A stretch of 64,000 nt of DNA from contig JARDVH010000140.1 in assembly GCA_030324005.1 (NCBI GenBank), positions 6,171,160-6,235,159 on the forward strand, written 5' to 3'. Under the pieces are notes generated by a model. That model saw nothing but the letters and a program-made list of their open reading frames with translations. It had not been told where the DNA came from and ran no database searches. The DNA comes from Negaprion brevirostris. Its lineage: Eukaryota. Both the position numbers and the translations under genes were made by a program. Shown here in pieces: positions 1-42,034 of this stretch. How positions within the stretch are numbered: the first letter of the stretch is position 1; the number at the start of each line of letters is the position of its first letter.

Positions 1-321
1 TGCCACTGACCCTGTAATCCGCATTCAAGTTTGTCCTACCAAAATGAATCACCTCGCACTTATGAGCATTAAACTCCATCTGCCACTTTTCTGCCTAGCT
101 CTGCATTCTATCATAGACCTCTTGTCTTACTGATTTCAGTACTCATTGCATTTGATTTAACTTTTTTAAATGCTCAAGGTGGTTCAGAAGTGTAAACAAA
201 TAAGGAGGCTAGATGGATAGATACATAAATGTTATGATGGGAAAGGACATTGATTGTGATATAGCTTGACAAAGTCTTGTAATTTGATTAAGGCTTTTAC
301 TAATTGTATTTTTCTTCAAAG

Positions 322-480
322 GGTCAATGGTATATGGTTATCGAAGAAGTGAGTCAGTTTCACCGTTCACTCATACCCTTGCCAGTTTGGTCTTGGTACC
401 TGATTGGTAACAAAGAATCAGATGGTTTTGCAATTTGGACTTTCGGTATTCTGCTAGGTTTGTTCTACCTCATACTCAAG
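322..480 (+). CDS. RNFT1: RNFT1 internal coding exon (transmembrane region), GQWYMVIEEVSQFHRSLIPLPVWSWYLIGNKESDGFAIWTFGILLGLFYLILK
   Basis: ttcaaAG acceptor at 320-321, GTAAGA donor at 481, 159 nt phase 0. The peptide matches the vertebrate RNFT1 segment G.WYM..EE..Q..R...P.PVW..YLI...W..GILL.L.YLILK. The gene's 5' part lies upstream of the window. Confidence 0.95.
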
Positions 481-838
481 GTAAGAGGAAAATCTTAGCT
501 TTGTTACGATATGGCGCGTGGTAATTACTGGGTTAACCAAATCTCAAAGGGAAATTTGGTCAAGCCACCACAACTATTTCCAATTGTATCTTTATTCTGA
601 GGTTTGGTTTGTTTTGCCTGTCTGTTTTGTAGGGGCACAAATGAATCCCCAGTTAATGTCCACAGTTTTCATACAATTAATACACAGTTAACAAAAACAT
701 GTATTTCTATAATGTTTTTCACATCTTCAAAGTGTTTTATAACCCATGAAGTACAATTGTAATGTAGCTGTTGTTTGTTATGCAGGACCACAGCAGTATC
801 TCCCAATAAAAACAGGGCAATTTTGCCAGCAGTAATAA

Positions 839-1036
839 TAAAAGCAAATTACTGTGGCTGCTGGAATCTGAAACCAAAAGCGAAAATGCTGGAAAATCTC
901 AGCAGGTCTGGCAGCATCTGTAAGGAGAGAAAAGCTTTGACAAAGGGTCATCTGGACTCAATGTCAGCTCTTTTCTCCTCTTACAGATGCTGCCAGACCT
1001 GCTGAGATTTTCCAGCATTTTCTGTTTTGATTTCTC
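839..1036. mobile_element. Penelope-like family B element, fold-back pair with a degenerate hammerhead at 933-969
   Basis: Arms ~868-936 and ~966-1033 are reverse complements (aaatgctggaaaatctcagcaggtctggcagcatctgtaagg / cttacagatgctgccagacctgctgagattttccagcattt). Core reads agct-TTGACAA-a-GGGTC-atctg-GACTC-aatgtc-agct. Confidence 0.8.
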
Positions 1037-1272
1037 CAGCAATATGTATGGAGTGGAGGATAGTTACAAAATACAACTGCGCATAAAACCAATATTGATC
1101 ATTAACAGAGGTCAGTCTCCAGATGTGATTGATTGGGTAAATCTCCTTTCTGCTGAAGAATACAGCACAACAGTAGACTTAACCCCATCCATCAATGCCC
1201 TATGCAAAGCAACTTTCTGAAATACACCGCAAATAGTGCTGGGGAATTTGGAGAAACATGTTGGAGTTTGAG

Positions 1273-1558
1273 CATTGCTGGCAAGGCCAGCGTTGTTTGC
1301 CCATCTCGCCCTTGCCCTTGAGCAGGTGGTGGTGAACCGTCTGCAATTGTGTTGGCTGCCAGACCATTTTGGAACGCAGTTAAGAATCAACCACATTGTT
1401 GTGGATCTGGAGTCAGACTGGGAAAGGGCGAAAGGTAAGTGGAACCAGATAGGTTTTTTAACAATAATTTGGTAGTTTAATTAATTTATCCATTAATTGA
1501 ATTTGAATTCTTCCAACTCTGGCCTCTGGATTATTAGTCCAGTTCCTAATCCACTGGA
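1273..1558 (-). mobile_element. Old tRNA-derived SINE (second family; a similar copy on + at ~40875-41165)
   Basis: Shares the CCACA.CAATG.GGTTGA.T and AAGGGC.A...GATGG.CAA.AA..GCTGG motifs with the 40.9 kb copy. Confidence 0.6.
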
Positions 1559-1802
1559 GAGCTGGTTAGCTCATTTAGCTAGACAACCACATATGGGCCA
1601 GATTAATCCCCACAGCACGGTTTGATCCCCATTCTCGCTCAAGCTGTAGTAAAATAAATCTTGCTCCTTTCCCGTGGTTTGCCAGGTAGTTGCCAAGGAT
1701 CTGCCTCTGGGTAGAAAACGTGAAAAATATTACCACTCTGCTGCGTGTGTTCATAACTCCAATTCCAGTCATTGTTCCTGATGCCATGTTTTTGATTCTC
1801 AG

Positions 1803-1868
1803 CTCCTTGGAATTTATGGTCGGTGGAGCAATTTCAGGAGAGTTCTGAAGAGTTTGACTCACAAGCAG
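1803..1868 (+). CDS. RNFT1: RNFT1 coding exon LLGIYGRWSNFRRVLKSLTHKQ
   Basis: tttgattctcAG acceptor, CAG|GTGAAT donor, 66 nt, in frame with both neighbours. Aligns with human LLEFFGHLRTFRQVLRIFFTQP. Confidence 0.88.
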
Positions 1869-2183
1869 GTGAATGAGTACGATATTGTTACGTTCCGGTA
1901 CAATGGTTCCCAATCCTTTTTTTTCCAGTCATGGCACAATATAAAAATTGAGGCAGATCTTCTTACTTTCTCCAACATTACTGCCTTCTAGCAAAAGCTT
2001 TTTATCTCTAAAACCTCCTAAAAACATGTCAAGACACCATTTAATACAATGAAAGCCTTATCACCTTATTGTGTGTCAAATACAATTTTTTTTATTGAAA
2101 ATTTACACAATTTAGAAGTGTTTCCCATTAAAGATTCCCATTGTCTTTTTTTCCACATCTGCATTTCTCAACATGAAATGAAG

Positions 2184-2290
2184 GGGTGGCATGGTGGTAC
2201 AGTGGTTAGCACTGGTGTGGAGAGTCTGCAGAAGGATCTAGATAGGCTGGGCGAATGGGCCAGAAACTGGCAAATGGAATTTAATGTTGG
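2184..2290 (+). mobile_element. SINE head fused to a CR1-LINE RT fragment, running into an N gap
   Basis: GGTGGCATGGTGGTACAGTGGTTAGCACTG (A box) followed by ESLQKDLDRLGEWARNWQMEFNV, a CR1 RT motif. Confidence 0.75.
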
Positions 2291-2444
2291 NNNNNNNNNN
2301 NNNNNNNNNNNNNNNNNNNNNNNNNNNNNNNNNNNNNNNNNNNNNNNNNNNNNNNNNNNNNNNNNNNNNNNNNNNNNNNNNNNNNNNNNNNNNNNNNNNN
2401 NNNNNNNNNNNNNNNNNNNNNNNNNNNNNNNNNNNNNNNNNNNN

Positions 2445-2545
2445 AAGGTCAGAGGCCGAATGCCCGTGACCACTGACCACTGTTCCCTTCCTGTTGGCGA
2501 ACACTTCTGTTTACCCCAGTCCAACGCCAGCATCTCCACATCATG
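2445..2545. mobile_element. Penelope-like fragment: endonuclease C-terminal peptide (partly inverted) joined to the family A terminus
   Basis: + strand encodes CSLPVGEHF and - strand encodes SGHGHSASDL, followed by TTACCCCAGTCCAACGCCAGCATCTCCACATCA, which is shared with the family A copies. Confidence 0.7.
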
Positions 2546-4559
2546 TCTACCTCTGTGAGCAGACTTTTGATCTGGAGCAGAATTGATGTCAGCTCGCAGG
2601 TCTTGCTGCACTGAAAGGCGCTCCGTCTTTTTTTTCCATAGTTTTGAGAACACCCACTTGCCCAGGTCAGTTGTGAGGAACTGCTGTAACACAATTTGAA
2701 ATAGATGATATTCTTGTCCCACAACAATCAAACTATATCCAGAGGCATATCTGCAAACTTAAATTTTAGTGTACAACTCCTCCTGAGCTCTAAATTCCTC
2801 TTGTTCTTTTAAGGACAATTTCTTTGATGATTCAAGAGAAAGTGAACTAAATGGATCACGTACCCAGTCAGAGTCTTCACGGAGGGGAAGTTGCATTAAG
2901 ATGTGTGGAGATGTGGTTGTGTATGGTTTTGCCAGCAGAATTTGCTGCTGCCAACTTGAACAGCTCAATCAACTCACTTGCCATGTTTTCCTGCCAAAGG
3001 GCCAGTTTTAATCTGAAGCCTTGAAGTTTATCTCTGGCAGTCAGCATGTTCTGGCTTCCCACCACCTGCTTTTTAACCTTCAACTCATTCAAACAGCTGA
3101 ATGTAACTGAAAGATACACAAGCTTAGCGCATCAAGAATCTTCATGTTTTAAATCTTTTTGAATGGCACTTCATGCAGAGCCTAAAACCCTTTCAGTGTG
3201 TCATGGAGCTTATTAATATGAGAGGACCTTTCCCTGAGACAGCCCTGCAAATCTGTGTGCATGAGTAAACCCTGGTACTTGACTCCCATCTTATCACACA
3301 AAACAGTAAAAATCAAAGGACGCGACTTCACATAATTCACGATCTTCCCTGTTTGGTCTAACACTGTAATTAACTCAAGTGGCATCATTTTGACAACAAG
3401 GGCTTCACAATGTCCTTAGCTAACCTGGATGTCAGGATTCTGTTTCACCTAACTCGCACATTCTTTGACTTTTCCCAGCAGGGGAGCTGCTCTCTCAGTG
3501 CAGTGTCACTGCAATTGGTCCAGTTCGGATTGTTTTCCTCCAGAGAAGCACTTGTGACGTGAATCGCTGGTTGTGTGGCCAAGTAATTCTTTGCAAAAGA
3601 AGATATTATTTTTCTTGGATTTTTGCCTATTTGTGCCACTGGCTAAGAGCTGGCAGAGTGAGCTAATATCTCAAGCTGCAGGGCGCATTTTCTACTTTCT
3701 AATTTCTCCTGAAGCACCTGTTCAGTATCAGATATTTAATCAAAATATCTTTTGATTGTGCCGTCAGAAAGAGGAACTTGTCAATTTCTTTGGCAGCATC
3801 AGCTGCCAAGGTTGCTTTCACGATTTGCATGCCGGCAGAATTGGGGTTTTGGCAATGGTTCTTGGGTTTCACTATTAGTTTGGCTGCCAGGTAACAGCCT
3901 CCTGCGCATTACCTGAAACCAGCACACACTCCATCACTTGAATTTTTCTTTACATTTTATTCTTTCAGTTGCTTGAACTGCTGTATATCCTTGCAGGAGA
4001 GCAAATGCTGCTTTGTATTCAAATGGTGCTTCTGCTTACTTGGTGCCATTGCAGCATTTGAGAGCAACTGCCTGCAGATTAGACATTCTGGGACAGGGCA
4101 AGAGGCACTACCAGTCCACCAAAATCCAAAGGCCAGTTGCTACCGCTGCGCTGTGTATACGGACGTTGCTTTTTTTCCTCCTGCAGTTCTGTTCTTTCAG
4201 CCACATCTGAATCTGAGTAGGATTTTTGACTTCTCTTCAAGAACCTATCCTTAGCAAACTTGGTCAAACGCACTACACTGCACAATAAATTCCCTCCAGC
4301 ATTAACTTACAAGCACAGTTTCAGCTCTTTGGCTGTGTTGAAAACTCCTCCAAACATGTATTCTTACCCCATCCTTGCATAGCATGGAGTTACCAACCCT
4401 CAGTTGCCTTCTCAGATCTTCAGAGCTTTTTTCGGGTCTCTTTGATCACCCATATCAATTTAGAGTCTGCTCCTCCCAGCCCTTTCTCTATGGAGCCTGT
4501 CTCTTTTCTTAGCTTCCTCAATTCCTATTTCTTAGCTCTATCATTTTCCCTTATTGGGC

Positions 4560-4700
4560 ATGATGTGAAATGTTGGAATTGGACAGGGGTGGGCACTGTA
4601 AAAAGTCTCTCAACACCAGGTTAAGAGTTTGTTTGGAATCACGAGCTTTCGGAGTGCTGCTCCTTCATCAGGTGAGTGGAGATTAGTTCGCAAACACGGC
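4560..4700 (-). mobile_element. Penelope-like family A terminal repeat
   Basis: Matches copies at 5.3, 19.2, 27.7-28.1, 55.5 and 62.6 kb. Confidence 0.8.
4639..4675 (-). ncRNA. Minimal type I hammerhead ribozyme (family A), intact core
   Basis: Minus strand: TCAC-CTGATGA-A-GGAG-cagca-CTCC-GAAA-GCTC^GTGA. Stem I TCAC/GTGA, stem II GGAG/CTCC, palindromic AGCT in place of stem III. Confidence 0.8.
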
Positions 4701-5296
4701 CTGCTGTGAAACCTCCACTCCTGTTTATCCTTGTCTCCTTCGTTTCTCCTAGGATTTTCACCTGTTTTTGCACAGGGCTGTAGTTTTCAGCTCCGAGTCC
4801 CAAGGAACCTTGTCTCCCATGTGCACGCTGGTGGGGAAAGGGTTGCAGTTGTGCAGTTTGAATAATTTTACGTTGGTAATCCGAACTGTGCACACAGCCC
4901 TTCCTCGGCTGTCGAGTGTGTAGGAGGCCTGAGATTTTGAATCTTATTTCACAGCACCCTTGGCTTCACTGAACCTGTATTCTAGTAAACTAATTGCTTC
5001 CTTTTCACATTCCCACAAGTGGTCATTTTTCAGATAGCAACAGCGGTGCTAATAAAATATTAACTGCTGCTATCTCTTGGTCACCTTGGGACACTGCAGC
5101 TGGTATTTGTAAGTCTGTCATTTGGAAATACAGAAGCACAAAATAAAAACTCCCCTCATTTAAAGATATTTGCCCCATCAGCCTTCAGGTTCTTCCCTAA
5201 ATTAACTGTAAAACCACAAAACAAAGTTTGCAGCATTTATTTTTATAAAAGAGCATTCAAATTTCTCCTTGGCCTCCTATGGTAATAGGAGTGTTC

Positions 5297-5403
5297 ATGA
5301 TGTGGATATGCCGGTGTTGGACTGGAGTAAACACAGTAAAAAGTCTGACAACACCAGGTTTCAGTCCAACCAATTTATTTGATAGTAAACTCACTAGCTT
5401 TCG
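5297..5403 (-). mobile_element. Penelope-like family A copy; hammerhead 3' half (CGAAAGCTA-GTGA) visible, remainder in N gap
   Basis: Similarity to 4560-4700. Confidence 0.75.
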
Positions 5404-6432
5404 NNNNNNNNNNNNNNNNNNNNNNNNNNNNNNNNNNNNNNNNNNNNNNNNNNNNNNNNNNNNNNNNNNNNNNNNNNNNNNNNNNNNNNNNNNNNNNNNN
5501 NNNAGTCCATGTCTCACATTGATTGCTGTGTTGAAGAGGAATTCGTGTTAAATTTCCTCTTGCTAGTTTGAACCTGTGCCCACTTATTTAAGATTCAGCA
5601 GGTTTTTTTTTTTAAAGAGAGCAATGCAACAGAGTACATTTCCACGGACAATTGGGCAGGTCCTTGACGAGGGTAATGGGGAAAAAGCCGGGGAATGGGA
5701 TTAATTGGATGTCTCTTTCAAAGAGTTGGCACAGGCCATCTCCTGTGCCTGGGGATTTTACAATTCTTTCTGATGCGTGGCATGGGGTTTAAGAGACTTT
5801 TATTTAAAACAAGCCCAGTCTCTTTATGGTGTTAGTCCTATTTCTGAGCTATCAGCACTACTACATTATTCTAACCTGACACACCACAAGGTTTGGAGAA
5901 ATATACAAGGAGGATTGAGCAAAGTGGGTAAAAATAACAACAACATTTGAATCTTTTGTATAGATTAACTGAAAATAAACCTAATTGGGCTTTTAATTAG
6001 CCCATCAGTAGTTGGACTTATTTTAATCTGTTCACGAGAAGAGTTGGGGTACTTTTGAATCACCTTGCTTGAAAAAGTGAACCATTTAGGTTGGTGTCTG
6101 TAAATCTGTAGTATATGTTTTCCTGATCTTCGTCCAAGAGCACTCTGATCGAACTCTATCCTGTTGTTTAATCAGTAGTTTCCCCAGGTGACCTAGCTAC
6201 TGAGTCTCATCTGTTTTATTTTTGAAACTTATTAGAAAATTGTCTAAACATGTTTTTAAAATGTGCACCACTTACTGGCCAACCCGTGCAACAGCCTTAT
6301 TACAGGCAACTGTTTACACTCAGATTTCTATTTTAAATGTGGATGATTTTAGTGTTAACATTTTATACAACAATTGACAAGAGTTGGTCTCTGTGCAGAC
6401 TTTTTTTAATCTGTGCATAAATATATGATTTG

Positions 6433-7045
6433 TGATGGCACAGTGGTTAGTGCTGCTGCCTCATAGTGCCAGGGACCCGGGTTCAATTCCTGCCTTGAGT
6501 GACTGTCTGGGTGGAGTTTGTACTTTTATTTTAAAGTTTATTTATTAGTGTCACAAATAGGCTTACATTAATAGTGCAATGAAGTTATTGTGAAAATCCC
6601 CTAGTCGCCACACTCCAGTGCCTGTTTGGATACACTGAGGGAGAATTTAGCCTGCCTGATATTCGATCCATCGAGCCTACACTGACAACAATCCCACCCA
6701 GGCCCCACGTATTTACCCTGCTAATCCTCCTGACACTAATGCTCAATTTACCATAGCCAATCAATCTAACCCACACATCTGTGGGGAGAATGTGCAGACT
6801 CTGCACAGACAGTGACCCAAGCTGGGAATCGAACCTGGATCCCTGGCACTGAGGCAGCAGTGCTAACTACTGTACTGCCCACATTCACCCCATGTATGTG
6901 TGGGTTTCCTTTGGGTGCTCCAGTTTCCACCCACAGTCCAAGATGTGTGGGTTAAGTTGTTTGGCGATGATAAACTGAGCATTAGTGTCAGGGTAAATAT
7001 GTGGGGGCTGGGTGGGATTGTTGTCAATGCAGGCTCAATGGACAA
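6433..7045. mobile_element. Composite of HE1/V-SINE-like pieces in both orientations
   Basis: A/B-box head on + (6433-6525), Rex1-type tail on - (6535-6655), SINE on - (6660-6870), SINE body on + (6880-7045). Confidence 0.8.
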
Positions 7046-7112
7046 AATGTCAAGATCCTGCATATATTCAACTAATAAAACCAGTAACCAATATCACTTT
7101 GCTCTGTTGAAG

Positions 7113-7214
7113 CACTACGGAACTGCAGCCAGCAAGCTTCAGTGCAGTGATGCAGGAGATATTTGTCCCATCTGCCAGACTGAATTCAGAGAGCCTATTG
7201 TCCTCATCTGTCAG
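7113..7214 (+). CDS. RNFT1: RNFT1 exon, first half of C3HC4 RING (HYGTAASKLQCSDAGDICPICQTEFREPIVLICQ)
   Basis: ctgttgaAG acceptor, CAG|GTAAAT donor, 102 nt; contains the CxxC motif and the third Cys of the RING finger. Confidence 0.96.
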
Positions 7215-7303
7215 GTAAATGTCTTAATGAGAAGTAGAAAAATAAAATTGAGAGATCCATTATCTTTAAGCTGTCTGAATTCCTTTCTTTTTCTATCCTG
7301 CAG

Positions 7304-7438
7304 CACATATTCTGTGAGGAGTGCATTTCACTCTGGTTTAATCGAGAAAAAACTTGCCCCTTGTGTCGGACTGTCATTTTGGACCACATTCAGGCCTGGC
7401 GAGATGGTGCAACATCTACCCATCTACAAATTTATTAA
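7304..7438 (+). CDS. RNFT1: RNFT1 last coding exon, second half of RING (HIFCEECISLWFNREKTCPLCRTVILDHIQAWRDGATSTHLQIY*)
   Basis: Polypyrimidine tract + CAG acceptor at 7301-7303, TAA at 7436-7438; near-identical to the RNFT1 C-terminus HIFCEEC..LWFNREKTCPLCRT...DGATS.HLQIY. Confidence 0.97.
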   Translation, partial: HIFCEECISLWFNREKTCPLCRTVILDHIQAWRDGATSTHLQIY

Positions 7439-10207: not shown

Positions 10208-10908
10208 TTATAGAATCATAGAAACTGTAGAGTACAGAAAGAGACCATTTGGCCCATTGAGTCCACACTGACCACAACCCCACCCAGGCCCTACCCCCCC
10301 CCCATATCCCTACATATTTACCCGCTAATCCCTCTAACCTACACATCTCCGGCCACTAAGGGGCAGTTTAGCATGGCCAATCCACCTAACCTGCACATCT
10401 TTGAACTGTGGGAGGAAATTTTTTGTGGGAGGAATAGCTTTTTCCGCTATTAGAAATGGATAGAACAAGGGGTCACGAGCTTAGGGTGAGGGGGGCTAGG
10501 TATAAGACAAATATTAGAGGGCAGTTTTTCACGCAAAGGGTAGTNNNNNNNNNNNNNNNNNNNNNNNNNNNNNNNNNNNNNNNNNNNNNNNNNNNNNNNN
10601 NNNNNNNNNNNNNNNNNNNNNNNNNNNNNNNNNNNNNNNNNNNNTGGACCTCCCTGATCCTCGCACATTAGGCGTAGACTAAAATCATGAATAGGTCACT
10701 GAGACAATGGGACGGCGGCGCAGGCTCGTTGGGCCAAAGGGCCTGTTTCCCGTGCTGTGTTGTTCTTTGTTCTTTGTAAACTGGAGCATCTGAAGGAAAC
10801 CCCCACAGACACAGAGAGAATGTGCAAACTCCACACACATAGTCATCCAAGGCTGTAATTGAACCCAGATCCCTGGCACTGAGACAACTGTACTAACCAC
10901 TGCTGCCA
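10208..10908 (-). mobile_element. HE1/V-SINE-like element interrupted by a CR1 3' fragment (+, ~10435-10775)
   Basis: SINE tail at 10208-10420 and head at 10779-10908 flank the CR1 ORF2 end (RTRGHELRVRG.RYKTNIRGQFFTQRV). Confidence 0.8.
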
Positions 10909-12017
10909 TGAAGATAGTTGGTGACAATTTATAGGTGGCAACAACTGACTGGATGTTGCTAAGAATGTGAAGCAATAGAGTAGACAGAGAGATCCAGCAG
11001 ACTGGAATAATAAATGGAGTCTGCAGACTGGAACTGGCAGAATGAGGAGAGGTTATATATAGTCAAACACTCAGCGATCTACAACGCACCTGCATTGTAT
11101 AGAGGTGTATTCTACATTTCACCTCCATTACCAAGATAGACAGATTACAAACACTTTATTTACTCTGCCTTTAAAGAATACCTAAATGTACCAAAACAAC
11201 TACTACAGGGGCCAATGGCTTCATAAAGAAGTGTAATCATTTGAAAAACAGAGAGCATTTGGGCAGGTGGGGAGTTACAAAAAACTACCAGGCCAGTGAA
11301 CGGAAACGCGGGAACTTCCCTCTAGTTGACAGTGTCCAAATTTTAATTGTAGAGGGGGAACTTACACACAAATTATTTTAATCTATTAAATGAATTTCAA
11401 CACGTCTCTCAGTAACAACTCAAAGCAGCAACAAGGAATCATCTTGTAAGAAGTGGGTTTTTTTACATACTAATCTCAATCTTTCGTTCACGCTTGCTTT
11501 CAATCGAGAAATCCCTATTCAGCAGGGTTCAAGCTCAACTTTTTACACCACATCCTGAAATTTAAATGTTCTGTCACAGTATTCTAGTTTAATGTGGTAA
11601 TTTAACTTTTAAGTTGAACTACCCACTGCTTTTTTTGAACTTTGAACATACTAATGAAGGTTGCTCAATGCAAGTATCAAGTTTTTTTTTAAATAGAACA
11701 GTTTAGCATGATAGTATCAAAATTTGGTTCNNNNNNNNNNATTTCTGCTTATATGTCATATTCTACGTTTGAATGTAGAGCTTTGAAAGTTCTGTTCTGA
11801 CTACTTAATTATTGTACCAATCTCAAACTTATGAACTTGGTAGAAGTGCTCTTATGAATTTAATAGAACAAAACTTATTATTCTTTGTCTGCGGCCTTTG
11901 GGGTTCTTATATATAAACAAATGGCTCATTAATAGCAAACATTTAGACCACATGAACAGAAACCTGGTTGCCTATTTTCAGTTGATCAACTAGTTGGTGG
12001 TGCAGAATATCGTAAGT

Positions 12018-12940
12018 AGAATCATAGAATCCCTACAACACAAAAGGAGGCCTTTCGACACATTGAGCCTGCACCAAAAACAATCCCAGCCATTTTATTA
12101 TCGTCACATGTATTAGCATAGTAAAAAAAATTGTTTCTTGCGCAAAAAACAGACAAAGCATAGAGAAGGAAAAGAGTGCAGAATGTAGTGTTAGTTATTG
12201 TTAGGGTGTAGAAAAAGATCAACTTAATGCAAGGTAAGTGTATTCAAAAGTCTGACAGTAGTAGGGAAGAAGCTGTTCTCGAGTCAGTTGGTACGTGACC
12301 TCAGACTTTTGTATCTTTTTCTCAACCTAAGAAGTGGGAAGAGAGAACATCTGGGTTGTGTGGGGGTCTTAATTATACTGGTTGCTTTTCTGAAGCACTG
12401 GGAAGCGTAGACAGTGTCAATGGGTGGGAGGCTGATTTGAATGACGGATTGGGCTTCCCTCATGACCCTTTGTACTTTATTGCAGAATTGGACAGAGCAG
12501 GAGCTATACCAAGCTATGATACAACCAGAAAGAATGCTTTCTATGACTCAGACTCAATCCCCATAACCCCATTTATTTACCCTGCTAATTCCCATTCAGA
12601 CTAAGAGGCAATTTAGCATAGCCAATCAACTTNNNNNNNNNNNNNNNNNNNNNNNNNNNNNNNNNNNNNNNNNNNNNNNNNNNNNNNNNNNNNNNNNNNN
12701 NNNNNNNNNNNNNNNNNNNNNNNNNNNNNNNNCCTGCTAATTCCCATTCAGACTAAGAGGCAATTTAGCATAGCCAATCAACTTAATCCACACATCTTTG
12801 GAGTGTGGGAGAAAACTGGAGCTCCCGAAGGAATCCCATGCAGACACAGAGAATGTGCAAACTCCACACAGTCAGTCAAGGTTGGAATTGAACCCAGATC
12901 CCTGGCACTGCGAGGCAGCATTGCTAACCACTGTGTCACC
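12018..12940 (-). mobile_element. HE1/V-SINE-like element interrupted by a Rex1/Babar-type LINE 3' end (~12092-12545, -)
   Basis: SINE tail at 12018-12090 and body/head at 12550-12940; the insert ends ...ATACATGTGACGATAATAAA on -. Confidence 0.7.
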
Positions 12941-13517
12941 AGAGTGTGTAATAAGTAGTTATTTGCCTCTCTGCAATCCAATCATGGTAGGAACAGAATA
13001 CTGGATAAAAGCTTCCATGCACTTACTTGTATTTTATTTCCAAGTTATTTCTTCCAATATCTTCTTCTGGCCTAGTCAAAATCAACATCTCAAGATTATC
13101 TAAATGTTGTTGGAGCACTTGCTGAGTACATGCACGTAGTGCTACACTTCAGAAGTACTTAATTGGTGGCTCTTCTACAGCATGGTTGTGAAGGGTGCTA
13201 TATAAATATAAATATTTTGCTTTAGCTATTATTTAACTGGTGTGGATGACTCTGAAATGGCCCAGCAAGTCACTCAGTTATATCAAATTGTGACAAAGCC
13301 CAAAAGGGATGAAACTGGATGGGTCACCCAGCATCAACTCAGGCACCAGAAATGACAGTAACACATCCAGCACTCCTTATTAATATTTTGACTTGTGTCA
13401 AAATTACAACCTTGGCCCAAACTTGGACAAGAGAACTAAACTCCTGTAGTGAAGAGAGAATGACTGCCTTTGATTGACGGTGACATCAAAAGCCTTAGCA
13501 AAACTGAAGGCAACGGG

Positions 13518-13752
13518 GAAATGCTGGAAAATCCCAGTAGGTCTGGCAGCATTTGTAAGGAGAGAAAAGAACTGACGTTTCAAGTCCAGATAACACTTTG
13601 TCAAAACCTTTGTCTGGAGCCCACTCAGCTTTGACAAAAGGTCATCTCGACTCGAAACTCGTTTCTCTTTTTACAGATGCCAGACCTGCTGAGATTTTCC
13701 AACATCTTCTGTTTTGGTTTCGGATTCTAGCATCTGCAGTAATTTGCTTTTA
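13518..13752. mobile_element. Penelope-like family B head-to-head pair with two U3-A8 hammerhead cores and a 13-bp flanking direct repeat
   Basis: Core on - at 13571-13608 (TTGACAA...GAAACGTC) and on + at 13627-13660 (agct-TTGACAA...GACTC-GAAAC). Flanks TGAAGGCAACGGG (13505-13517) and TGAAGGCAATGGG (13753-13765). Confidence 0.8.
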
Positions 13753-14472
13753 TGAAGGCAATGGGAATCAGGATTGATTGGAATCATACCTGGCACAAAA
13801 GAAGGTGGTTCCTTTGGGTCAATCATCTCAATTCCAGTACATCAGCTTAGAGACCTAGGCCCAACCATGTTCATGCCTGTAAAATCAATTTCAGCACCAT
13901 TCAGGACTTGCCAGGTACTGAAGCAGTTCATCTCCATACGCAGCAGGACCTGGACAATATTCAGGTTTGGGCTGATAAGTGGCAAGGAACATAATGCAGA
14001 GCAATGTCCATTTTCAACAAGAGATAATCTAACTATTCCCCTTCAACAAGTGGCATTACCATCTTGGAATCTCCCACTTGGGATTAAAATTGACTAGAAA
14101 CTGAACTGGACCAGCATTGTGGCTACAACAACAGCTCAGAGACTGGAAATTCTGCAGAGAGTGACTCACTTCCTGAGTCCCCAAAGTCTATTCACTATCT
14201 ACATGGCACAAATCAGGAGTGTGATGGAATACTCTCCATTTGTCTGGATACAAGTGCAGCTCCAACAACACAAGCAGCTCAACACCATCCAGGGCCAGAC
14301 AGTCCTCTTGGTCAGCATCCCACATTCAACATCCATTCTGTCCCATTATTAATGCACAGTATCAGCAGCATCTATAAGATGCACTGCAACAACTCACCAA
14401 GGCTGTTTCAACAGCACCTTTCAAACCTGTAATCTCTATCACTTTCAAGAGGCAGCAGATGTGTGGGAACAT

Positions 14473-18879: not shown

Positions 18880-19125
18880 TGCAGCATGGTGGCACACTGG
18901 TTAGCACTGCTGCCTCACAGCACCAGGGGCTTGGGTTGCTGGTTGAGTTTGTACATTCTCTCCATGTCTGCATGGGTTTTCTCCTGCTGTTCATGTTTCC
19001 TCCCACAGTCTGAAAGACATGCTGATTAGGTGCATTAGCCCAAATAGGTGCTGGAGTGTGGGGATTTTCACAGTAACTTCATTGCAGTGTTAATGTAAGC
19101 CTTATTTGTGACCAATAAACTTTAC
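18880..19125 (+). mobile_element. V-SINE-like element, Rex1-type tail variant
   Basis: tRNA head + V-core + GGATTTTCACAGTAACTTCATTGCAGTGTTAATGTAAGCC..TTGTGAC.AATAAAC. Confidence 0.85.
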
Positions 19126-19200: not shown

Positions 19201-19290
19201 TCATGATTCCAGATAAACCTATTGGATTTTAACCTGGTATTGAGAGACTTCTTACTGTACCCACTCCAGTCCAACACTGGCACCTCCACC
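19201..19290 (+). mobile_element. Penelope-like family A copy beginning at the hammerhead cleavage position
   Basis: TC^ATGATTCCAGATAAACCTATTGG...CCAGTCCAACACTGGCACCTCCAC; no ribozyme core upstream. Confidence 0.7.
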
Positions 19291-20474: not shown

Positions 20475-20885
20475 AGTTTGGGCCTATACTCTCTGGAATT
20501 CAGAAGAATGAGGGGAGATCAAATTGAGGTGAGAGAGATGAGGAGGTATGGATAAAGTATATGTGGAGCAGATGCTTCCTCTTGTGGGGCATTCTAGGAC
20601 GAGCAGTCATAGTCTTAGGATAAGGGGTAGCAAATTTAAAACAGAGTTGAGGAAAAACTACTTCTCCCAAAGGGTTGTGAATCTGTGAAATTCACTACCC
20701 CAAAGTGCAGTGGATGCTGGAATAGGGAGTAAATTTAAGGATTAGTTAGACATATTTTTAATTGGTAATGGGTTGAAAGGCTATGGGGAGAAGACAGGAA
20801 AATGGGGTTGAGGAGCATATCAGCCATGATCGAAAAGCGGAGTGGGCTCAATAGATCGATTGGCATCATTCTGCTCCTATATCTT
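20475..20885 (+). mobile_element. CR1 LINE 3' fragment (same subfamily as 24270-24785)
   Basis: Long near-identical shared sequence (GGATAAGGGGTAGCAAATTTAAAACAGAGTTGAGGAAAAACTACTTCTCCCAAAGGGTTGTGAATCTGTG). Confidence 0.85.
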
Positions 20886-23007: not shown

Positions 23008-23080
23008 TTAACTCTGTTTCTTACTCCATTGATGCTGCCAGACCTGCTGAGATTTTCTTTTTCAAGCACTTTCTGTTTAT
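23008..23080 (+). mobile_element. Penelope-like family B copy starting at the cleavage position
   Basis: TT^AACTCTGTTTCTT...GATGCTGCCAGACCTGCTGAGATTTT. Confidence 0.65.
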
Positions 23081-23349
23081 TTTATTCATTTATTCATTTC
23101 AGCTATGTCCCCTGTCTCCATGTGTCAATCCCCTTGTTGGAACTATTCAGCTCCGTGCCTTCTTTTACCATGCACACATGTTTATACCCTGGTCGAGATT
23201 TAAAGGTCAAAATCTTCCCTCCTCATTCGCGGCTGGGATTTTCTGGTGCTGCTGACAATGAATGGAGTTTTGGCTGGAATGCTAAATTTTCCATTCTCGC
23301 TCACACTAGGTCCTGCCACGGATGAAGCTGGAGAATCCCATCCAATTAC

Positions 23350-23662
23350 CATAGAACCCCTACAGTGCAGAAAGAGGCCATCCGACCCATTGAGTCTGCA
23401 CCGACCACAATCCCACCCAGTCCCATCCCACAACCCCAGTGTTTACCCTGCCAATCCCCCTTACACTAAGGGGCAATTTAGCATGGTCAGTCAACTTAAC
23501 CCATAGATCTTTGGACTGTGGGAGGAAACCGGAACACCCGAAGGAAACCCACACAGACAAGGTGAAAATGTGCAAACTCCACACAGTGACCCGAGGCCAG
23601 AATTGAACCGCGTCCCTGGCGCTCTGACGCAGCAGTGCTAACCTCTGTGCTACTTGCTGCCC
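23350..23662 (-). mobile_element. Full-length HE1/V-SINE-like element, CR1-type tail
   Basis: tRNA A/B boxes, V-core GGGTTTCCTTCGGGTGTTCCGGTTTCCTCCCACAGTCCAAAG, tail ...CTGCACTGTAGGGGTTCTATG. Confidence 0.9.
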
Positions 23663-24062: not shown

Positions 24063-24190
24063 ATAAAAACAAATTACTGTGATTGCTGGAATCTGAAACA
24101 AAAGCTGTAAATGCTGGATAATCTTAGCAGGTCTGACAGTACCTATGGAGAGAGAATGGAGCTAACGTTTTGAATCTGGATGACCCTTTG
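24063..24190 (-). mobile_element. Penelope-like family B copy, truncated inside the hammerhead core
   Basis: Minus: CAA-a-GGGTC-atcca-GATTC-AAAA-CGTT-AGCTCC... Confidence 0.75.
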
Positions 24191-24269
24191 AAATGCTAAC
24201 TATATTCTTGTTTTTTGTTGCTACTTTGCTCCCCAGTTCCCTAACTTCCGACTGCAGAACTACATGCCA

Positions 24270-24785
24270 CTTTTGTCACCGTATCTGAGGAAAGATGTAG
24301 TGGCACAGGAAGCAGTTCAGAGGAGGTTCACTAGATTGATTCCAGAGATGAGGGGTTTGCCGTTATGATGAGAGATTGAACAATTTAGCCTATACTCTCT
24401 GGGATTTAAAAGAATGAAAGGAGATCAAATTGAGGTATTCAAGATGATAAAAGGTATGGATAAAATAGACGGGGAGTGATGCTTCCTGTTGTGGGGCATT
24501 CTAGGATGAAAGGTCATTGTCTTAGGATAAGGGGTAGCAAATTTAAAACAGAGTTGAGGAAAAACTACTTCTCCCAAAGGGTTGTGAATCTGTGGAATTC
24601 ACTACCCAAAAGTGTAGTGGATGCTGGGACAGTGAGTTACACCAATTTTTAATTGGTAATGGGTTGAAGGATTATGGGGAGAAGGCAGGAAAATGGGGAT
24701 GAGGAGCACACCCATGCAGCCATGATCGAACGGTGGAGCAGACTTGATGGGCCAAATGGCCTAATTCTACTTCTATTTCTTATGA
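24270..24785 (+). mobile_element. CR1 LINE 3' fragment
   Basis: SPYLRKDVVA.EAVQRRFTRLIPEMRG motif and CR1 tail. Confidence 0.85.
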
Positions 24786-25470
24786 ATGTACAAATAGCCA
24801 CAAATATGAGACCTAATGTTTTACAGATGATTGCGGGATGCAAGATAAATATAATGACTCCGTGATAAGGGGGCTTCAATAAAATGAAATTTGGTTATCA
24901 CAATATATTCAGCAGTTACTGCCATATTCAACTTCCCTTTTGGGACTGTTTACGTCAACTAGTTTACATAATGTTGGTAAAATATTGTGATTTCTCTCAT
25001 TGCTGGTCTCTAGAAATTTGGCAATCTCCACATGCATTCAGTCAAGGCAAGCCCAAAATATTGGCATTACCAGGAATAGCAAATGGGTTCTGGCTTTCAC
25101 CAACATAACTGTGTCTTTACTCAGTGTTTCGTCTGCAAAGACAAGACTTCATCCTGACCCTCAACTCCAATTGATTCAACATTTGCGAGAATGGCAACTT
25201 TACAACTACAGCACACCTGTTCAATATCTGTATCAGTTACAATTGAGCCACATCTAGCCAAGAACCTGGGTTAAGGTTTTATCTTTATATGCTAGTAATC
25301 TTAATGATGGTACAAGTCAAGAGTCAATGTGCACAGTGGTTATACAACAAGACAGTCAACAATTCTGAAGTCTGTTTTCTATGTTTTAAGCATTTGTGAT
25401 ATGATTGACAGCTTAATCTTGTTCATTTATCCTACTAAATTTTCTTTATAAAATAAAAAAGCCATCCTTA

Positions 25471-25765
25471 GTTTAAAGTTTATTTATTACTGTCATAAGT
25501 TGACTCACATTAACACTGCAATGAAGTTACTGTGAAAATTCCCTGGTTGCCACACTCCAGTGCTGGTTCGGGTACAGTGAGGGAGAATTCAGCATGGCCA
25601 ATGCACCTAACCAACACGTCTTTCAGACAGAGATGAAACTGGAGCACCCGAGGAAACCCACGCAGACATGGGGAGAACGTACAAACTCTGTATAGACAGT
25701 GACCCAAGCCGGGAATCGAATTCGGGTTCCTGGCGTTGAGGCAACGGTGCTAACCACCGCATCAC
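25471..25765 (-). mobile_element. V-SINE-like element, Rex1-type tail
   Basis: Same head, core and tail as 18880, 40512, 42757, 44150 and 50013. Confidence 0.88.
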
Positions 25766-26837
25766 CAATCCTGGCGGATGATCAATGAAACTGTAACGCG
25801 CAAGGACATTGCCTATAGAGTGAACATAGCACAAATATGAAGCTCCCTTGATAATTTTAGGAGTTCCTTGATGTTTGTTTGTAAGCATTTAAAATTCATA
25901 TTCAACCTAAACCACGCTGTTAATTCTCATCCAGTCCCTTATAATCCAGTGCAAGGTATTTTCTTTTGGTTGGGAGAGGATGAAAAGACAGGTTTCAAAT
26001 GAGGGCATTGCAAAAAAAGAAATAAAGTAGTCTTCCCTTCTGTTGAAGGAGTCTTAAGATTTTCAATGTCAAGGGCCAAATATAATTGCAAGAGACTGAT
26101 TAACACTTTGGGTGGGATCCTTAATCATAACTGACGTCATATTCTAGATATCAGGCCCCAACAGACTGATCTGCTGTGCTTTTCAAGCGGTTATTTCTGG
26201 TTTCCAACATTTGCAGTCTTTCTGCATAGCTCTGCAATGAGATTATGGTGTTATTATTAAAAGTACATATGAAATTTAGGCCAACAAAATTTCTAGAGAT
26301 GTGACGTATGGAGAAAGTATATCTATGCTGCTCAGCGAGAAGTAGCTGGTCACACAGATTATCCACTACACCATGAATTCATCCAAAAAGAAAAAGAGGT
26401 TGGAGGTAAGAGAACATCTGAACTGTTCAATCTTGTTCAGCACGCTGGAGTATGCTGCAACTTTTTAAACTTAGCACATTGCTTAGATAATAAAGTGACC
26501 TTTTTTAAAAAAAGTTGACTAATTCCTCTTTTTTTTGTGCCCTCTCTTTTTATAATCAGCAAGCAAACTGCTCATAGATCATCTGTGTAAGAGTAGCAGC
26601 ATAGGATGACTAATGTCCCAATCTTCCTTCTGTTGTACAGCAGTAGGCTTCTACATGGGGCTTCAGGACTTTCCAAATGAGAACATGATAGAGCCAGAAG
26701 ATAGGTTCAATCATACATTAGAGACAATCCATCATACCACCACATAAATAATCAGCTAATTGAGTTACTTGGCCAGCAAGCAAGCTATTAGACAACAAAT
26801 CAGTAAATGTATATGAAACAAAAAATTGTGGCAATAA

Positions 26838-27210
26838 TAGAATCATAGAAACCCTACAATGCAGAAGGAGGCCAATCGGCCCATCAAGACTGCACAGACA
26901 ACAATCCCACCTAGGCCTTACCTCCACTGGCCTATATGTTTACTTCACTAACAGGCCAAAGGGTCCGTTTCCCGTGCTATGTTGTTCTTTGTCCCTCTAA
27001 CCTACACATCTCATGACACTAAGGGTCAATTTAGCATGGTCAATCAACCTAGCCCGCACATCTTCGGATTGTGGGAGGAAACCGAAGCACCCGGAGGAAA
27101 CTCACGCAGACACAGGGAGAACGTGCAAACTCCACACAGCGACACAAGCCGGGAATTGAACCCAGGTCCTTGGAAGTTGTGACAGAGCAGTGCTAACCAC
27201 TGTGCCACCC
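26838..27210 (-). mobile_element. HE1/V-SINE-like element, CR1-type tail, with a small internal insertion
   Basis: TAGAATCATAGAA tail on +, V-core and A/B boxes. Confidence 0.85.
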
Positions 27211-27736
27211 AGAAATAGAACATGACTCAAATAAACCTGGAAAGATTTTGCTGCGTGTCTCCAACACGAGAAGACACCAAAAAAATAGAGCCTGCATCAC
27301 TATTTTGAGTATTACATGATGGATTCACTGGTTTTAATGCTCTGGAGCTGTCCTCTTCTGGCTTCACTTCAAGGGAACTGCCAATTGGTGCTCCCTGGCC
27401 ACGAACAAGATGAAACTCACTGCCTCACGTCCTTTGATTTCTTATTCCTCTGAGGAAGCCTGTGACTATTCTGCACTACTATCTGATAGCAGGGCTGAGG
27501 TAAGAAATTCACCAATGTTGAATCCATGAGCGTACATTCTAAAATTCAGGAATCTGTCTTTAAAAATAAAGTAGGTAAAACAATGACATGATACACGTGC
27601 ATATTAACAGAAGTCAATAATACCATGAAATGTGAACTAATCTAGTGTCATGTCAGCTATCAGCTGGTGAAAAAGGATGCACCTGCTTGCTTGGTTTTGG
27701 TTTCTAGTGCAGATGAGACTACTGTAGACGATGTGT

Positions 27737-28131
27737 AGCCATGATGTGGAGTTGCTGGCATTGGACTTGGGTATGCACAGTAAGTAGTCTCACAACACCA
27801 GATTAAAGGCCAACAGATTTGGCAGCACAAGCTTTCAGAGCTTTGCCCCTTCATCAGGTGAGTGGAGAGGTAGGTTTCACAAACACAGCATATACAGACA
27901 ACTGAATGGCTTGCTAAGCTTCTCAATAGTCCCTTGGGGAAGGAAATCTGCCGTCCTTACCTGGTTTCAACTGCTGCCTAGCAAGCCACTCAGTTGTATC
28001 AATTGCTACAAAGCCTCTGTCTACATATGCTGTTTGCGAAAGCTACCTCTCCACTCAATGAAGGAGCAGCACTCCAAAAGCTCATGATTCCAAATAAACT
28101 TGTTGGACTTTAACCTGGTGTTGAGATTATT
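27737..28131. mobile_element. Penelope-like family A head-to-head pair with a 17-bp flanking direct repeat
   Basis: Left arm on - (27737-27900), right arm on + (~28017-28137). Flanks TACTGTAGACGATGTGT (27720-27736) and TACTGTAGACAATGTGT (28132-28148). Confidence 0.8.
27826..27860 (-). ncRNA. Minimal hammerhead ribozyme (family A), core intact
   Basis: CAC-CTGATGA-A-GGGGC-aaa-GCTCT-GAAA-GCTT^GTG; stem II is held with G-U pairs. Confidence 0.7.
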
Positions 28132-28459
28132 TACTGTAGACAATGTGTGAAGGTGAACTGGACATGAATGGATTGTTAGCTCACAGAAAATTTTCAGAGG
28201 TTAAGACTAATTTCAGCACTTGCTCGACAATATTCCTAGAGAAAGTGAGCATACTTGGAGCTTGACCACAATGATAATTTAACCATTCTAGTTAGTTCAT
28301 GCCAAAACATCAGCAGAAATAAAAACAAGCATGTACACACTTCCCTGTTCTTCGCAACACTTAGATTCGCAAACTTTATTAAATGATCTGTTAATTGATT
28401 TAAAATAGTTATTCTTCCTAAACGGCCTAAAGACCCAAAACAATTTGCTTAGACTCCAA

Positions 28460-36710: not shown

Positions 36711-38584
36711 AAGCTCAGAGAATTTTAGGATTGTGTCATTTATACATTTTGTCCCACAAAAATACACAAATTGCAAATGGAAATTGGAATTCACCCTTGA
36801 TTTATATGTTTCAACTACCCTTTATCTTTACTCACTTATCTAGTTCACAAGTTTCCTACTGTATGACTAACCCTCAAAGTGAATTCCACAAGCTAAGAAA
36901 ATTGTTCATTAGTGAATTAGTTGGGGGTTTTAATAACAACCTGTGAGCTTTGCAGTCAATTTCACTGATAGCTGTTTTTAGTTCGTTTTTTTTGTTAAAG
37001 ACTTAATTTTAGAAAACTGAATTCAAATTCTTAAATCGTTCTGGTGGGATTTTAATGCTCATTCTCTATCCAGGCCTCTGGATCATTAATCAGTAACATT
37101 ACCCATTCGATAACACTGCAACTAATGCTGAATTAGTGTAAAAGATCAGTGTATAATGCTACATCCGATCCACAATAAAGTCAATTTTTCTTTTGAAAGT
37201 ATACATTGTATAACTCAGCTACATATATTATTTCTGCCAGAATGATGATGACTGGTTAATTACTCCATCAATCACACCTGGAGATACCACTGTAAGCATC
37301 TAGGATTCATTGTCTGTATACATTTTTGTGTGACTCTTCTCCACTCACTGTAATTTGCTGGAAAAATAATCAATTCATGTTACTTAACTACCCTCCATTT
37401 ATTCCATGTTGCTACTATCAGGGACACTGATGTAGCTTCTGTCATGAATACCTTTGCTGTAGTTTCTGGCTGGATATCATGGCACCACTGGTTCACATCT
37501 GCTGTAGTATGTGATTTAAACAAATTGGTTGCTGAGTAACGAGACTTTGGTTTTTTGTGAATTTCATTATCAAGTGTTCTGCAGTAGTCCCAACCTGCCT
37601 CCAACACAATGGGGTCAATAGATACACTGTGGTTTTCCTTTTAACTTAGCCAGGAGCTGTTACGGACAATACAACACATCTCTGCTGCGTTGAATGAGAT
37701 CAGTGAACTGGGGACCAAAGCTGGGATCTTTTGTCTGCATGGCTTAGTATTATACTGAAAGTTTTATGGTCCATATGTTGGACTTCCTCAATCTGAAATA
37801 GTTGCCTCATAAATCCGTTTTCGATTCTGGGAAATAACATTACTTTCATATTTACGTCCATAGAAAAAAAGGGCTTGTTGAGAATTTGCTGGACAGTTTA
37901 AGCCAGCGCCAGAATACAAGTGAAGAGTTGCTTATGATATATTCAGTCGGGGCAGCCGTTGCAAAATGAATAACTACAGTTTGCTGGCCAACATCTTTCA
38001 TTCGCAACACTTCTACAATGAAGATAAAAATTACATTTCCACAGGAATTATACCACGAAGTACTTTATATTGATTTACTTCTGCCACAATATAAATCATT
38101 CAAATTAATTTTGTCCTGTGTGTTAGGAGGTAGAGTGGGCCCCTGCTAACGATGTAATATGAAATATCTCCAACTCAGGAAGCAATCATTTATTGTTAAT
38201 GTCAGCCTTGCTTGTAAAAGCTTGATCACTCAGTAATGTGTTAGAGTAATCTTTACATGACACCACTCCCTTTGTTGAAAAGACCATGAGTCAGGGGTAG
38301 GGCTAAAACATCAAATCATCACTTGCACCAGATAATTTTTAAATGATTTACAGAAGAACCAGAGGTGGCATGAGGATTTTTTTTTTAAAAACAGGTGGTT
38401 AGAATTTGGATACACAGCCAAAACAGATTCAAAAGGGAATTGGATAAATATTCAAGGATGAAAATTAACTGCAGAATGGGGAAGAACTGGCATAGACTCA
38501 GTGGGCTGAATGTGCTATGATTCTCTCTGATCCCAGTTAACAAGAGAGTCTACAACAACAGCTAGCCAATCTAAAACATTATCG

Positions 38585-40511: not shown

Positions 40512-40812
40512 GGGGTGGCATGGTGGAAGTGGTTAGCACTGCTACCTCACAGCGTCAGTGACCCAGGTTTGATTCCCAACTCGGGTCAGTCTGTTTGGAC
40601 TTTGCACGTTCTCCGTGTCTAGGTTTCCTCCGGGTGCTCTGGTCTCCTCCCACAGTCAAAAAGACATGCCAGTTAGGCGTAATGGCAATGCAAAATTCTC
40701 CCTCAGCATAACTCAGCAAACAGGTGCTAGAGTGTGGCAACTAGGGGATTTTCACAATAATTGCATTGCAGTGTTAATGCATGCCTACTTATGACTAATA
40801 AATAAACTTAAC
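40512..40812 (+). mobile_element. V-SINE-like element, Rex1-type tail
   Basis: tRNA head, V-core, tail GGGGATTTTCACAATAA...GACTAATAAATAAACTT. Confidence 0.88.
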
Positions 40813-41489
40813 TTAATAGAAGCAAAATAGCATGGATGCTGGAATCAAAAACAAAGGGAAAAAAACCCAGAAAAATCCAGAGATCCAGGGTAATGCTCTG
40901 GGTTCCAGCTTCAAATCCTGTCACTGAAGATGGTGAAATTTGAATTCACTGAAGATCTGGAATTGAAAGTCCATGAAACCATTGTTAATTGTTGTAAAAA
41001 CTCATCTGGTTCACTAATGTCCTTCCATCCTTATCTGGTCTGGAGCACGTGACTCCAGACCCACAGCAATGAGGTTGACTTGTAACTGCCTCTGAGGGCA
41101 ATTAAGGATGGACAATAAATGCTGGTTCAACAAGTAATGCTCATGTCCAAGGAACTAATTTAAAAAAAACATTCTTTCCATTCAACTAACAGTAAGCTTG
41201 AATATATGCATCTTTGTCACACTGCAGCCAACCAATCATTTCTGGGATGGGGGTAACGGCATACACAACTTGATTTGAAGTCCTGCCAGGCTCATGGGGC
41301 AGAAGTTCTGGTTGCAATGGTTCTGTTAAGCGAATTTGAACAGTCTTAAACTAGCTCCTAGGTGGCATAGTAGACTTACAGAACAAAACTGTTCCCTATT
41401 TAGCACTAACTCGTATGAATGGTAAAATTGTCATATCGTCAGATGCTCAAGGTCAATGCTGAAACACATTAATAGAACCAAGGCTGGAG

Positions 41490-41798
41490 TCATAGAATCC
41501 CTGTAGTACAGAAGGAGGCTATTTGGCCCATTAAGTATATACTGATGACAATCCTACCCAGACCCTATTCCTGTAACCCCATGCACTTACCCTGCTAATC
41601 CCCCTGAAACTAGGGTCAATATAGCACGACCAAACTAATCCGCACATCTTTTGGAGTGTGGGAGGAACCTGGAGCACCCAGAGAAAATTCACCGACATGG
41701 GGACAATGTGCAGAGTCTACAAAAACAGTGACCCAAGCCGGGAGTTGAACCCGGAACTCTGGTGCTGCGAGGCAGCAGTGCTAGCCACTGTGCTGCCC
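41490..41798 (-). mobile_element. HE1/V-SINE-like element, CR1-type tail
   Basis: Same structure as 23350-23662. Confidence 0.88.
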
Positions 41799-42034
41799 AT
41801 GTGTTTGACATGATTTCCTTCTGCTGTACCTACTCGTGATGCTGACAGGATATTACATTTAGGTACAGCGCAGAAATGGACCATCTGGTCTATGCCTGCA
41901 CTTACACACCATTTCAGGACACCCTTTCATTTCTTTGTCCCTCACATGCTTATCTGCTTTCCCTTAAATGAATCTGTCCTCTTCCCCAAATACTCGTGTG
42001 CCATTTTGTGTTCCATTCTCCAATGTCAACATCA

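Follow-up and report, generated by a model that had tools for sequence, protein, structure and literature searches.

What is the short dispersed repeat that bears a hammerhead-like motif at 4.6 kb of the DNA studied here, and does the motif still work as a ribozyme? The whole 64-kb stretch that was analyzed (the window) holds further copies of this repeat, which we call family A. Our results indicate that family A very probably represents the fossil 3′ pseudo-LTR (pLTR) ends of an endonuclease-bearing, Neptune-like shark Penelope-like element (PLE). The copies in the window look like decaying fossils rather than working ribozymes.

The hammerhead motif at 4.6 kb

The minus strand at 4675-4639 reads TCAC CTGATGA A GGAG cagca CTCC GAAA GCTC GTGA. 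This bears out, letter for letter, the preliminary description of the locus, including the core and the 4-bp stems I and II; the putative cleavage site is between 4643 and 4642 (Table 1). Positions 15.1-16.1 are the palindrome AGCU, without a loop. It had been claimed that this stem III cannot close within one unit, and the fold predicted for the monomer indeed has stems I and II and lacks stem III (-8.1 kcal/mol, z -0.65). With such a z-score, the stability by itself is unremarkable.

The consensus of minimal PLE hammerheads (min-HHRs) given in Figure S3 of Cervera and De la Pena (2014, PMC4209133) is NNN CUGANGAH GNNNNN..NNNNNC GAAAN-palindrome-NU H NNN. The 4.6-kb motif fits it, down to an additional base ahead of G10.1, a G10.1-C11.1 pair, and a palindrome at 15.2-16.2, as expected from its original assignment as a PLE-type minimal type I hammerhead.

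A min-HHR descriptor matched the window at only two places, 4671(-) and 27857(-). Both have the complete core CUGANGA...GAAA...UH, which is absent in the three other arms that span the region. At least one match was found in 3 of 400 dinucleotide shuffles and two matches in none, a chance rate of 0.0075 matches per window; the two sites are homologous and thus not independent of each other. The 4.6-kb copy combines stems I and II with three features outside the demands of the descriptor: the extra base (between 9 and 10.1), the G10.1-C11.1 closing pair, and the palindrome. No hammerhead family of Rfam matched the window, even at E<=5, which by our own reading is explained by its hammerhead models requiring a real stem III. 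The missing Rfam match, the non-significant fold z-score, and the lack of covariation (see below) would suit a chance resemblance in an unrelated repeat. Nevertheless, the low chance rate, the presence of all three undemanded features, and the location of the motif, which is that of PLE hammerheads (in the pLTR, just upstream of the ORF start), make such a coincidence extremely improbable.

Anatomy of the family A copies

Using nhmmer at E<=1e-8 (an eleventh match, with E 0.42, was left out), we found 10 arms of family A at seven loci, and the recurrences listed previously were all real. The arms are 85-93% identical to their own consensus. Table 1 gives their positions together with those of the other features discussed.

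Table 1. Positions of family A, its hammerhead, other repeats, and host exons in the 64-kb window
Feature	Position	Strand	Remarks
Minimal type I hammerhead	4639-4675	-	Whole motif, in the 4.6-kb family A arm
Stem I	4675-4672/4642-4639	-	4 bp
CUGAUGA	4671-4665	-	Extra A at 4664
Stem II	4663-4651	-	4 bp, closed by G10.1-C11.1
GAAA	4650-4647	-	
AGCU palindrome	4647-4644	-	
C17	4643	-	
Family A 3′ end only	2508-2545	+	About 38 nt, stops at ATG, without ribozyme; RNFT1 intron
Family A arm, 5′-truncated PLE pLTR	4559-4712	-	Intact hammerhead; solo, RNFT1 intron 1869-7112
Family A arm	5296-5403	-	RNFT1 intron, antisense; meets the 100-N gap 5404-5503
Family A arm from the cut site on	19201-19289	+	Without ribozyme; intergenic
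Long arm of inverted pair	27740-27900	-	Second intact core, stops at ATG; intergenic
Short inverted arm	28018-28137	+	Stops 37 nt before the ATG end; core broken (deletion and G12A)
Flanking duplication, left copy	27720-27736		17 bp; overlaps arm end (microhomology)
Flanking duplication, right copy	28132-28148		17 bp; 16/17 against left copy
Short arm of inverted pair	55462-55552	-	44 nt short; core broken (A6G, G12A); RPS6KB1 intron, sense
Long arm of inverted pair	55554-55676	+	Core broken by deletions; RPS6KB1 intron
Short arm of inverted pair	62565-62622	-	34 nt short, begins past the cut site; RPS6KB1 intron
Long arm of inverted pair	62631-62719	+	Without ribozyme; RPS6KB1 intron
Family B	838-1034, 13492-13753, 23017-23079, 24063-24196, 51097-51206		
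Families D1-D14, D19, D20	6433-6870, 10210-10420, 12016-12946, 18887-19061, 23343-23650, 25468-25757, 26837-27203, 40519-44427, 48498-50309, 60246-60553		
RNFT1 exons	About 322-480, 1803-1868, 7113-7215, 7301-7438	+	
RPS6KB1 exons	About 62.4 kb to stop near 34.9 kb	-	

The 5′ ends of the arms are ragged (consensus positions 1 to 123) and the 3′ ends are fixed. Seven of the 10 arms terminate within about 6 nt of one ATG, 90 nt past the cut site. The remaining three, which are the short partners of inverted pairs, terminate 34, 37, and 44 nt earlier, so that one-sided tails of these lengths occur at three of the seven loci. These are the loci with head-to-head inverted pairs (27.7-28.1, 55.5, and 62.6 kb); all close family A pairs are inverted, not head-to-tail.

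The core is full in two arms and broken in three. Four of the 10 arms (2.5 kb, 19.2 kb, and both at 62.6 kb) lack the ribozyme and begin at or downstream of the cut site. The 5.3-kb arm shows the 3′ half of the hammerhead (GAAAGCUA, then GUGAGU), its 5′ half being lost in the N gap; it lies on the same strand as the 4.6-kb arm, with the cut sites about 750 nt apart. The AGCU palindrome is present in five of the six arms that cover the site, and the fourth stem I pair in one of five only. The core at 27861-27826 (-), which had been reported as a second intact one, keeps 11/11 core letters, but its stem II is closed by a G-U pair, its stem I is down to 3 bp, and its triplet is CUU (U at 17); the minimum free energy (MFE) fold of the isolated core is not a hammerhead.

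Flanking duplications were sought at five family A loci (4.6, 19.2, 27.7-28.1, 55.5, and 62.6 kb), of which two were significant, one was borderline, and two, the solo arms at 4.6 and 19.2 kb, had none. The 16/17 duplication at 27.7-28.1 kb was matched by none of 3000 random flank pairs. At 62.6 kb, 10 bp are identical (62556-62565/62718-62727, null 0.13%), and a possible 12-bp duplication at 55.5 kb (55452-55463/55673-55684, 10/12, null 6%) was not significant.

The published signature of PLEs consists of 5′ truncation, an adjacent inverted and truncated copy, and a tail of 30-40 bp at one end (PMC8557442; also PMC11167929). The tail is explained by two start sites of the RT (PMC11167929), and duplications of 8-10 bp have been described (PMC3846280). 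Judged from its sequence anatomy, family A matches this signature in truncation, inversion, tail, and duplications.

The spacer at 27900-28018 contains a piece of another repeat, in which 27976-28015 matches 13260-13300 (85%, E 3e-6), and this piece is partly mirrored in both arms. This suggests a template jump or read-through capture preceding the inversion. The window has 17 N runs (10- and 100-N, e.g., 5404-5503), which point to a short-read assembly. Such gaps are where PLE tandems and inversions are prone to collapse, so longer copies may be hidden; a full-length partial tandem (pLTR-ORF-pLTR) was not found in the 64 kb.

The preliminary description regarded family A as non-autonomous. 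One alternative is a self-standing unit, retrozyme- or SINE-like or a MITE-like palindrome, which is transcribed, cleaves itself, and is moved in trans by a PLE. We consider this unlikely. Its density (seven loci in 64 kb), the absence of an ORF remnant from the window, and the mirrored non-pLTR sequence in the 27.9-kb spacer are in its favor, as is the description of vertebrate non-LTR retrozymes as pLTR derivatives, found in one chondrichthyan (Li et al., 2026, bioRxiv 10.64898/2026.07.22.740005). However, ragged 5′ ends with fixed 3′ ends are those of truncated retrocopies, and for a MITE the palindrome centres vary too much by locus and the arms are unequal. There is also no tandem unit at 4.6-5.4 kb: upstream of the 5.3-kb arm the inter-arm DNA is absent (score 35, within 50 random controls). 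The most fitting reading is that an autonomous element left these copies as dead insertions truncated at the 5′ end; a separate non-autonomous family fits less well.

An indirect link to a PLE ORF

The Pfam scan covered 426 of the 427 N-free ORFs of at least 50 aa (one touching an N gap was excluded), and none of the 426 had an RT or GIY-YIG domain. In tblastn searches of the window, the proteins P0013-P0017 had no match at E<=0.5, and a set of eight proteins gave matches only from repeat-derived stretches.

We built a profile from the translations of eight arms, each read in the frame set by the terminal ATG. A word-indexed protein search with this profile found nothing among 583 candidates, and a search of the ESM Atlas returned only a sub-threshold, unrelated match. 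The full HMMER search of 1.84 billion proteins gave five matches. P0008 and P0012 were dropped as repetitive proteins without a credible match to the profile, and P0010 and P0011 were uninformative, being bare repeat translations without an ORF link. The fifth, P0009 (E 2e-7), joins the last repeat codons to a different coding piece. Its residues 9-93 are 87% identical to P0013 of Mustelus asterias and 77% identical to P0014 of Heptranchias perlo, and the coding piece is also related to the longer RT proteins P0016 and P0017 (five matches among 31 candidates).

P0014 contains an in-frame junction between the repeat and the PLE ORF. Its residues 64-74 are repeat translation (E 5e-4 among six proteins), and the last residue of this stretch is a Met that lies opposite residue 1 of P0013, P0016, and P0017 in the alignment. 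After the terminal Met, the window reads M-A-T (27.8 kb) and M-S-T (2.5 kb), compared with M-T-T in the shark proteins.

P0017 (881 aa) has an RVT_1 domain (E 4e-10), a CX4CxxC at 743, and, at 781-832, a GIY-YIG-type motif that contains cysteines and is followed by histidines. It thus has a CX2-5CxxC linker between the RT and the C-terminal GIY-YIG, a region that P0013 and P0014 are too short to cover. The clade call, Neptune-like, derives from P0017, whose identity to the P0009 segment is only 53%, and we regard it as probable.

The link is based on one named gene model (P0014; 9/11 profile positions, low score) and a second record, P0009, of 630 nt with its pieces in rearranged order. These protein records, rather than genomic DNA, support a pLTR that runs into the start of a PLE ORF, in agreement with the independent anatomy of the DNA copies. 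The proposal that the repeat is a PLE terminus is upheld through this link.

Host genes and strand

The exon at 322-480 belongs to RNFT1 and shows 91-94% identity with four sharks and 79-83% with three rays (seven matches among 89 candidates), which supports a shark as the host. RNFT1 (1-7438, +) and RPS6KB1 (34880-62500, -) are arranged tail to tail, the neighborhood that they also have in mammals.

The RNFT1 exon positions place the 2.5-, 4.6-, and 5.3-kb copies within one intron. RPS6KB1 introns hold the 55.5- and 62.6-kb loci, the latter by inference, because it precedes an internal kinase exon. Five of the seven loci are therefore intronic, and those at 19.2 and 27.7-28.1 kb are intergenic. 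The hammerhead strands at 4.6 and 5.3 kb are antisense to RNFT1, and on the sense strand none of the intronic arms in the window retains an intact core. The suggestion that the genome is densely seeded with these ends, including in introns, agrees with the copies in the window, which are dense and mostly intronic; the implied working ribozymes are not supported, as full cores occur in 2/10 arms only and are antisense or locked in a hairpin. It is very unlikely that the 4.6-kb copy acts in the RNFT1 pre-mRNA, because it is on the opposite strand.

Decay and activity of the copies

In the five arms covering both halves of the core, mismatches were 9/55 in the core and 62/370 in the flank (Fisher p=1, a comparison of low power). 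Leaving out the discovery copy gave 9/44 and 49/296 (p=0.52), and the finding of two intact cores in five arms had p=0.13 under the neutral expectation. The family A core is lost at the neutral rate, and no selection on it was seen; the core is no better conserved than its flank, an outcome that the preliminary description had named as one that would count against it. The CpG at 11.1/12 is mutated in three of the six arms covering it, and the one at 17/1.1 is TG or CA in three of the five arms with the AGCU palindrome.

The stems pair in register in 77% of cells, compared with 20-49% when slid. Covariation in the five informative arms was not above shuffles (420/500 as high), and weak covariation is expected because the copies are dead copies of one master.

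Folding predictions were mostly unfavorable to activity. The 27.7-28.1-kb insertion is predicted to form a hairpin of -191 kcal/mol with its inverted arm, with the core buried. For the 4.6-kb copy, a trans homodimer (-14.5 kcal/mol) is predicted to be less stable than two monomers (-16.2), so the energy model disfavors simple dimer cleavage. Published min-HHR monomers are inactive and their dimers cut weakly (PMC4209133), and eight of nine Xenopus dimers showed no cleavage (bioRxiv 10.64898/2026.07.22.740005). By its architecture and by analogy with this literature, the family A hammerhead would depend on dimers, and the genomic copies are probably inactive in vivo.

The 4.6-kb arm alone has 0/11 mismatches in the core and 13/74 in the flank, and it might be a functional ribozyme that has been retained, e.g., one that cuts antisense intronic RNFT1 RNA with the 5.3-kb arm as partner. 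When folded together as isolated pieces, the catalytic half of the 4.6-kb arm and the substrate half of the 5.3-kb arm give a hybrid hammerhead with a 6-bp stem I and a 4-bp stem III (-14.3 kcal/mol, MFE -14.4, vs. -10.4 apart). In the 804-nt cis context, however, the hybrid is disfavored by 11.4 kcal/mol, with pair probabilities below 0.5%. Each arm has a 13% chance of an intact core, this arm was chosen because its core is intact, the antisense transcript is hypothetical, and the published min-HHRs and Xenopus dimers cited above are weak or uncut. Retention for function is thus highly improbable. We hold it equally doubtful that the neighboring fossil pLTRs (4.6 and 5.3-5.4 kb) complement each other, as the folding of the pieces might suggest, to form a working split hammerhead on an antisense RNFT1 transcript. 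If they did, dense shark PLE ends would create host-locus ribozymes by chance pairing.

Taking family A as truncated ends of a shark PLE, we propose the following course. The pLTR of the master element would have contained a minimal type I hammerhead, with the ORF start codon about 90 nt further downstream. Two such motifs, from tandem pLTRs or held by protein, could form a 4-bp stem III by pairing of their AGCU palindromes and, as in other PLEs, would cut after GCUC. The hammerhead would have belonged to the RNA of the master element, where most likely it acted as a dimer or with help from the protein of the element. The GIY-YIG would nick the DNA, and reverse transcription would start either around the ATG or about 35-45 nt inside it. 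Synthesis of most copies would abort after 40-170 nt, and an inverted second copy would often be made, which would leave either single arms or unequal palindromes flanked by short duplications. Once inserted, the copies decayed neutrally, CpG sites first. The genomic copies would bear the hammerhead as cargo, with the 4.6-kb core kept by chance.

Other repeats in the window

A second repeat, family B, has seven arms at five loci, two of which are lopsided head-to-head palindromes. A flanking duplication of 12/15 (null 2%) was found at its 0.9-kb locus, and three of four family B loci were negative. From its alignment, family B can be read as a minimal hammerhead of the U3-A8 core type (UUGACAAA); GAAACGUC is kept in the 13.5-kb arm. 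Stem II has 5 bp and stem I has 4 bp, with 82% of cells paired and without covariation. No single family B arm passed the min-HHR descriptor. Cores of the U3-A8 type are reported in Schistosoma (Cervera and De la Pena, 2014, PMC4209133). If the assignment is true, sharks would have two parallel abundant families, one with a C3-G8 core (A) and one with a U3-A8 core (B), a natural comparison of this core pair within vertebrates. The 0.9-kb hairpin of family B mimics a microRNA precursor in Rfam; a miRNA at 886-1018 was rejected, as the Rfam matches are far below the cut-offs and arise from the family B palindrome.

Further abundant dispersed repeats are families D1-D14, D19, and D20, which to us resemble tRNA-derived shark SINEs with composite tails. 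Family D16 is a 160-nt direct repeat (20571-20730 and 24478-24637) of 93% identity, younger than the other repeats. A Pfam ALKBH8_N match (53906-54064, +, E 1e-4) lies within 52800-54100 (+), which we take to be a decayed LINE-like RT fragment; ALKBH8_N commonly matches the C-termini of LINE ORF2. In an RPS6KB1 intron, 37383-37640 (-) matches Pfam Topoisom_I weakly (E 3.5e-4, below cut-off), possibly the remnant of a tyrosine-recombinase element, or chance.

Comparison with known systems

This kind of PLE hammerhead has been known since 2014, including solo copies and opposite-strand pairs (PMC4209133). Among the papers surveyed we found no account of family A or of shark PLE hammerheads, and Repbase, Dfam, or preprint supplements may already hold the family. 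Penelope elements are already listed for the whale shark, and hammerhead tandem repeats have been counted in one chondrichthyan (bioRxiv 10.64898/2026.07.22.740005). Our results add sharks to the hosts of PLE hammerheads, with a defined family, the ORF linked to it, and clear instances of insertions with tail and inversion. They are useful for repeat annotation (families A and B occupy 12 loci in 64 kb), and they reveal no new ribozyme class and no sign of a host function.

Family A shares with the min-HHRs of Cervera and De la Pena (2014, PMC4209133) the type I topology, the CUGANGA-H core, and the stem III without loop, as well as the predominance of solo genomic copies and the opposite-strand pairs 100-700 bp apart. 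Their lamprey entry has the UCAC/GUGA stem I of the 4.6-kb motif, and their turtle and rotifer entries have a G-C palindrome like that of family A. In contrast, the stem II of family A is short (4-5 bp), and none of the 56 motifs in their Figure S3 comes from cartilaginous fish.

With the non-LTR retrozymes (Li et al., 2026, bioRxiv 10.64898/2026.07.22.740005), family A has in common that it is pLTR-derived, non-coding, and dispersed as monomers with a type I hammerhead. Those retrozymes are defined by head-to-tail tandem units that each have a hammerhead, of which none was seen in the window.

Only Neptune and Poseidon are reported among vertebrate PLEs in the same preprint. Poseidon-Ac of Anolis (Frangieh et al., 2024, PMC11167929) resembles family A in its two preferred 3′ end points a tail-length apart and in a hammerhead near the ORF start. 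Its cleavage needs the protein of the element and is dispensable for insertion in vitro (PMC11167929). The ORF of Poseidon-Ac starts inside the hammerhead and its copies end 111-118 nt into the ORF, whereas in family A about 90 nt separate the cut from the downstream ATG, at which the copies end. Poseidon also lacks the Zn-linker of the ORF family linked to family A.

A further comparison is with the EN+ Neptune PLEs (Craig et al., 2021, PMC8557442). Unlike them, family A has no evident microsatellite target at its loci, and its ORF is absent from the window. The two share a pLTR with a hammerhead, 5′ truncation, an inverted adjacent copy, and a one-sided tail, and the linked ORF family has the Neptune-like layout of RT, CX2-5CxxC linker, and CCHH GIY-YIG (PMC8557442). 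Nematis also has this linker, so the layout of P0017 is that of Neptune/Nematis. As Neptune-like material, family A may serve studies of the role of PLE hammerheads.
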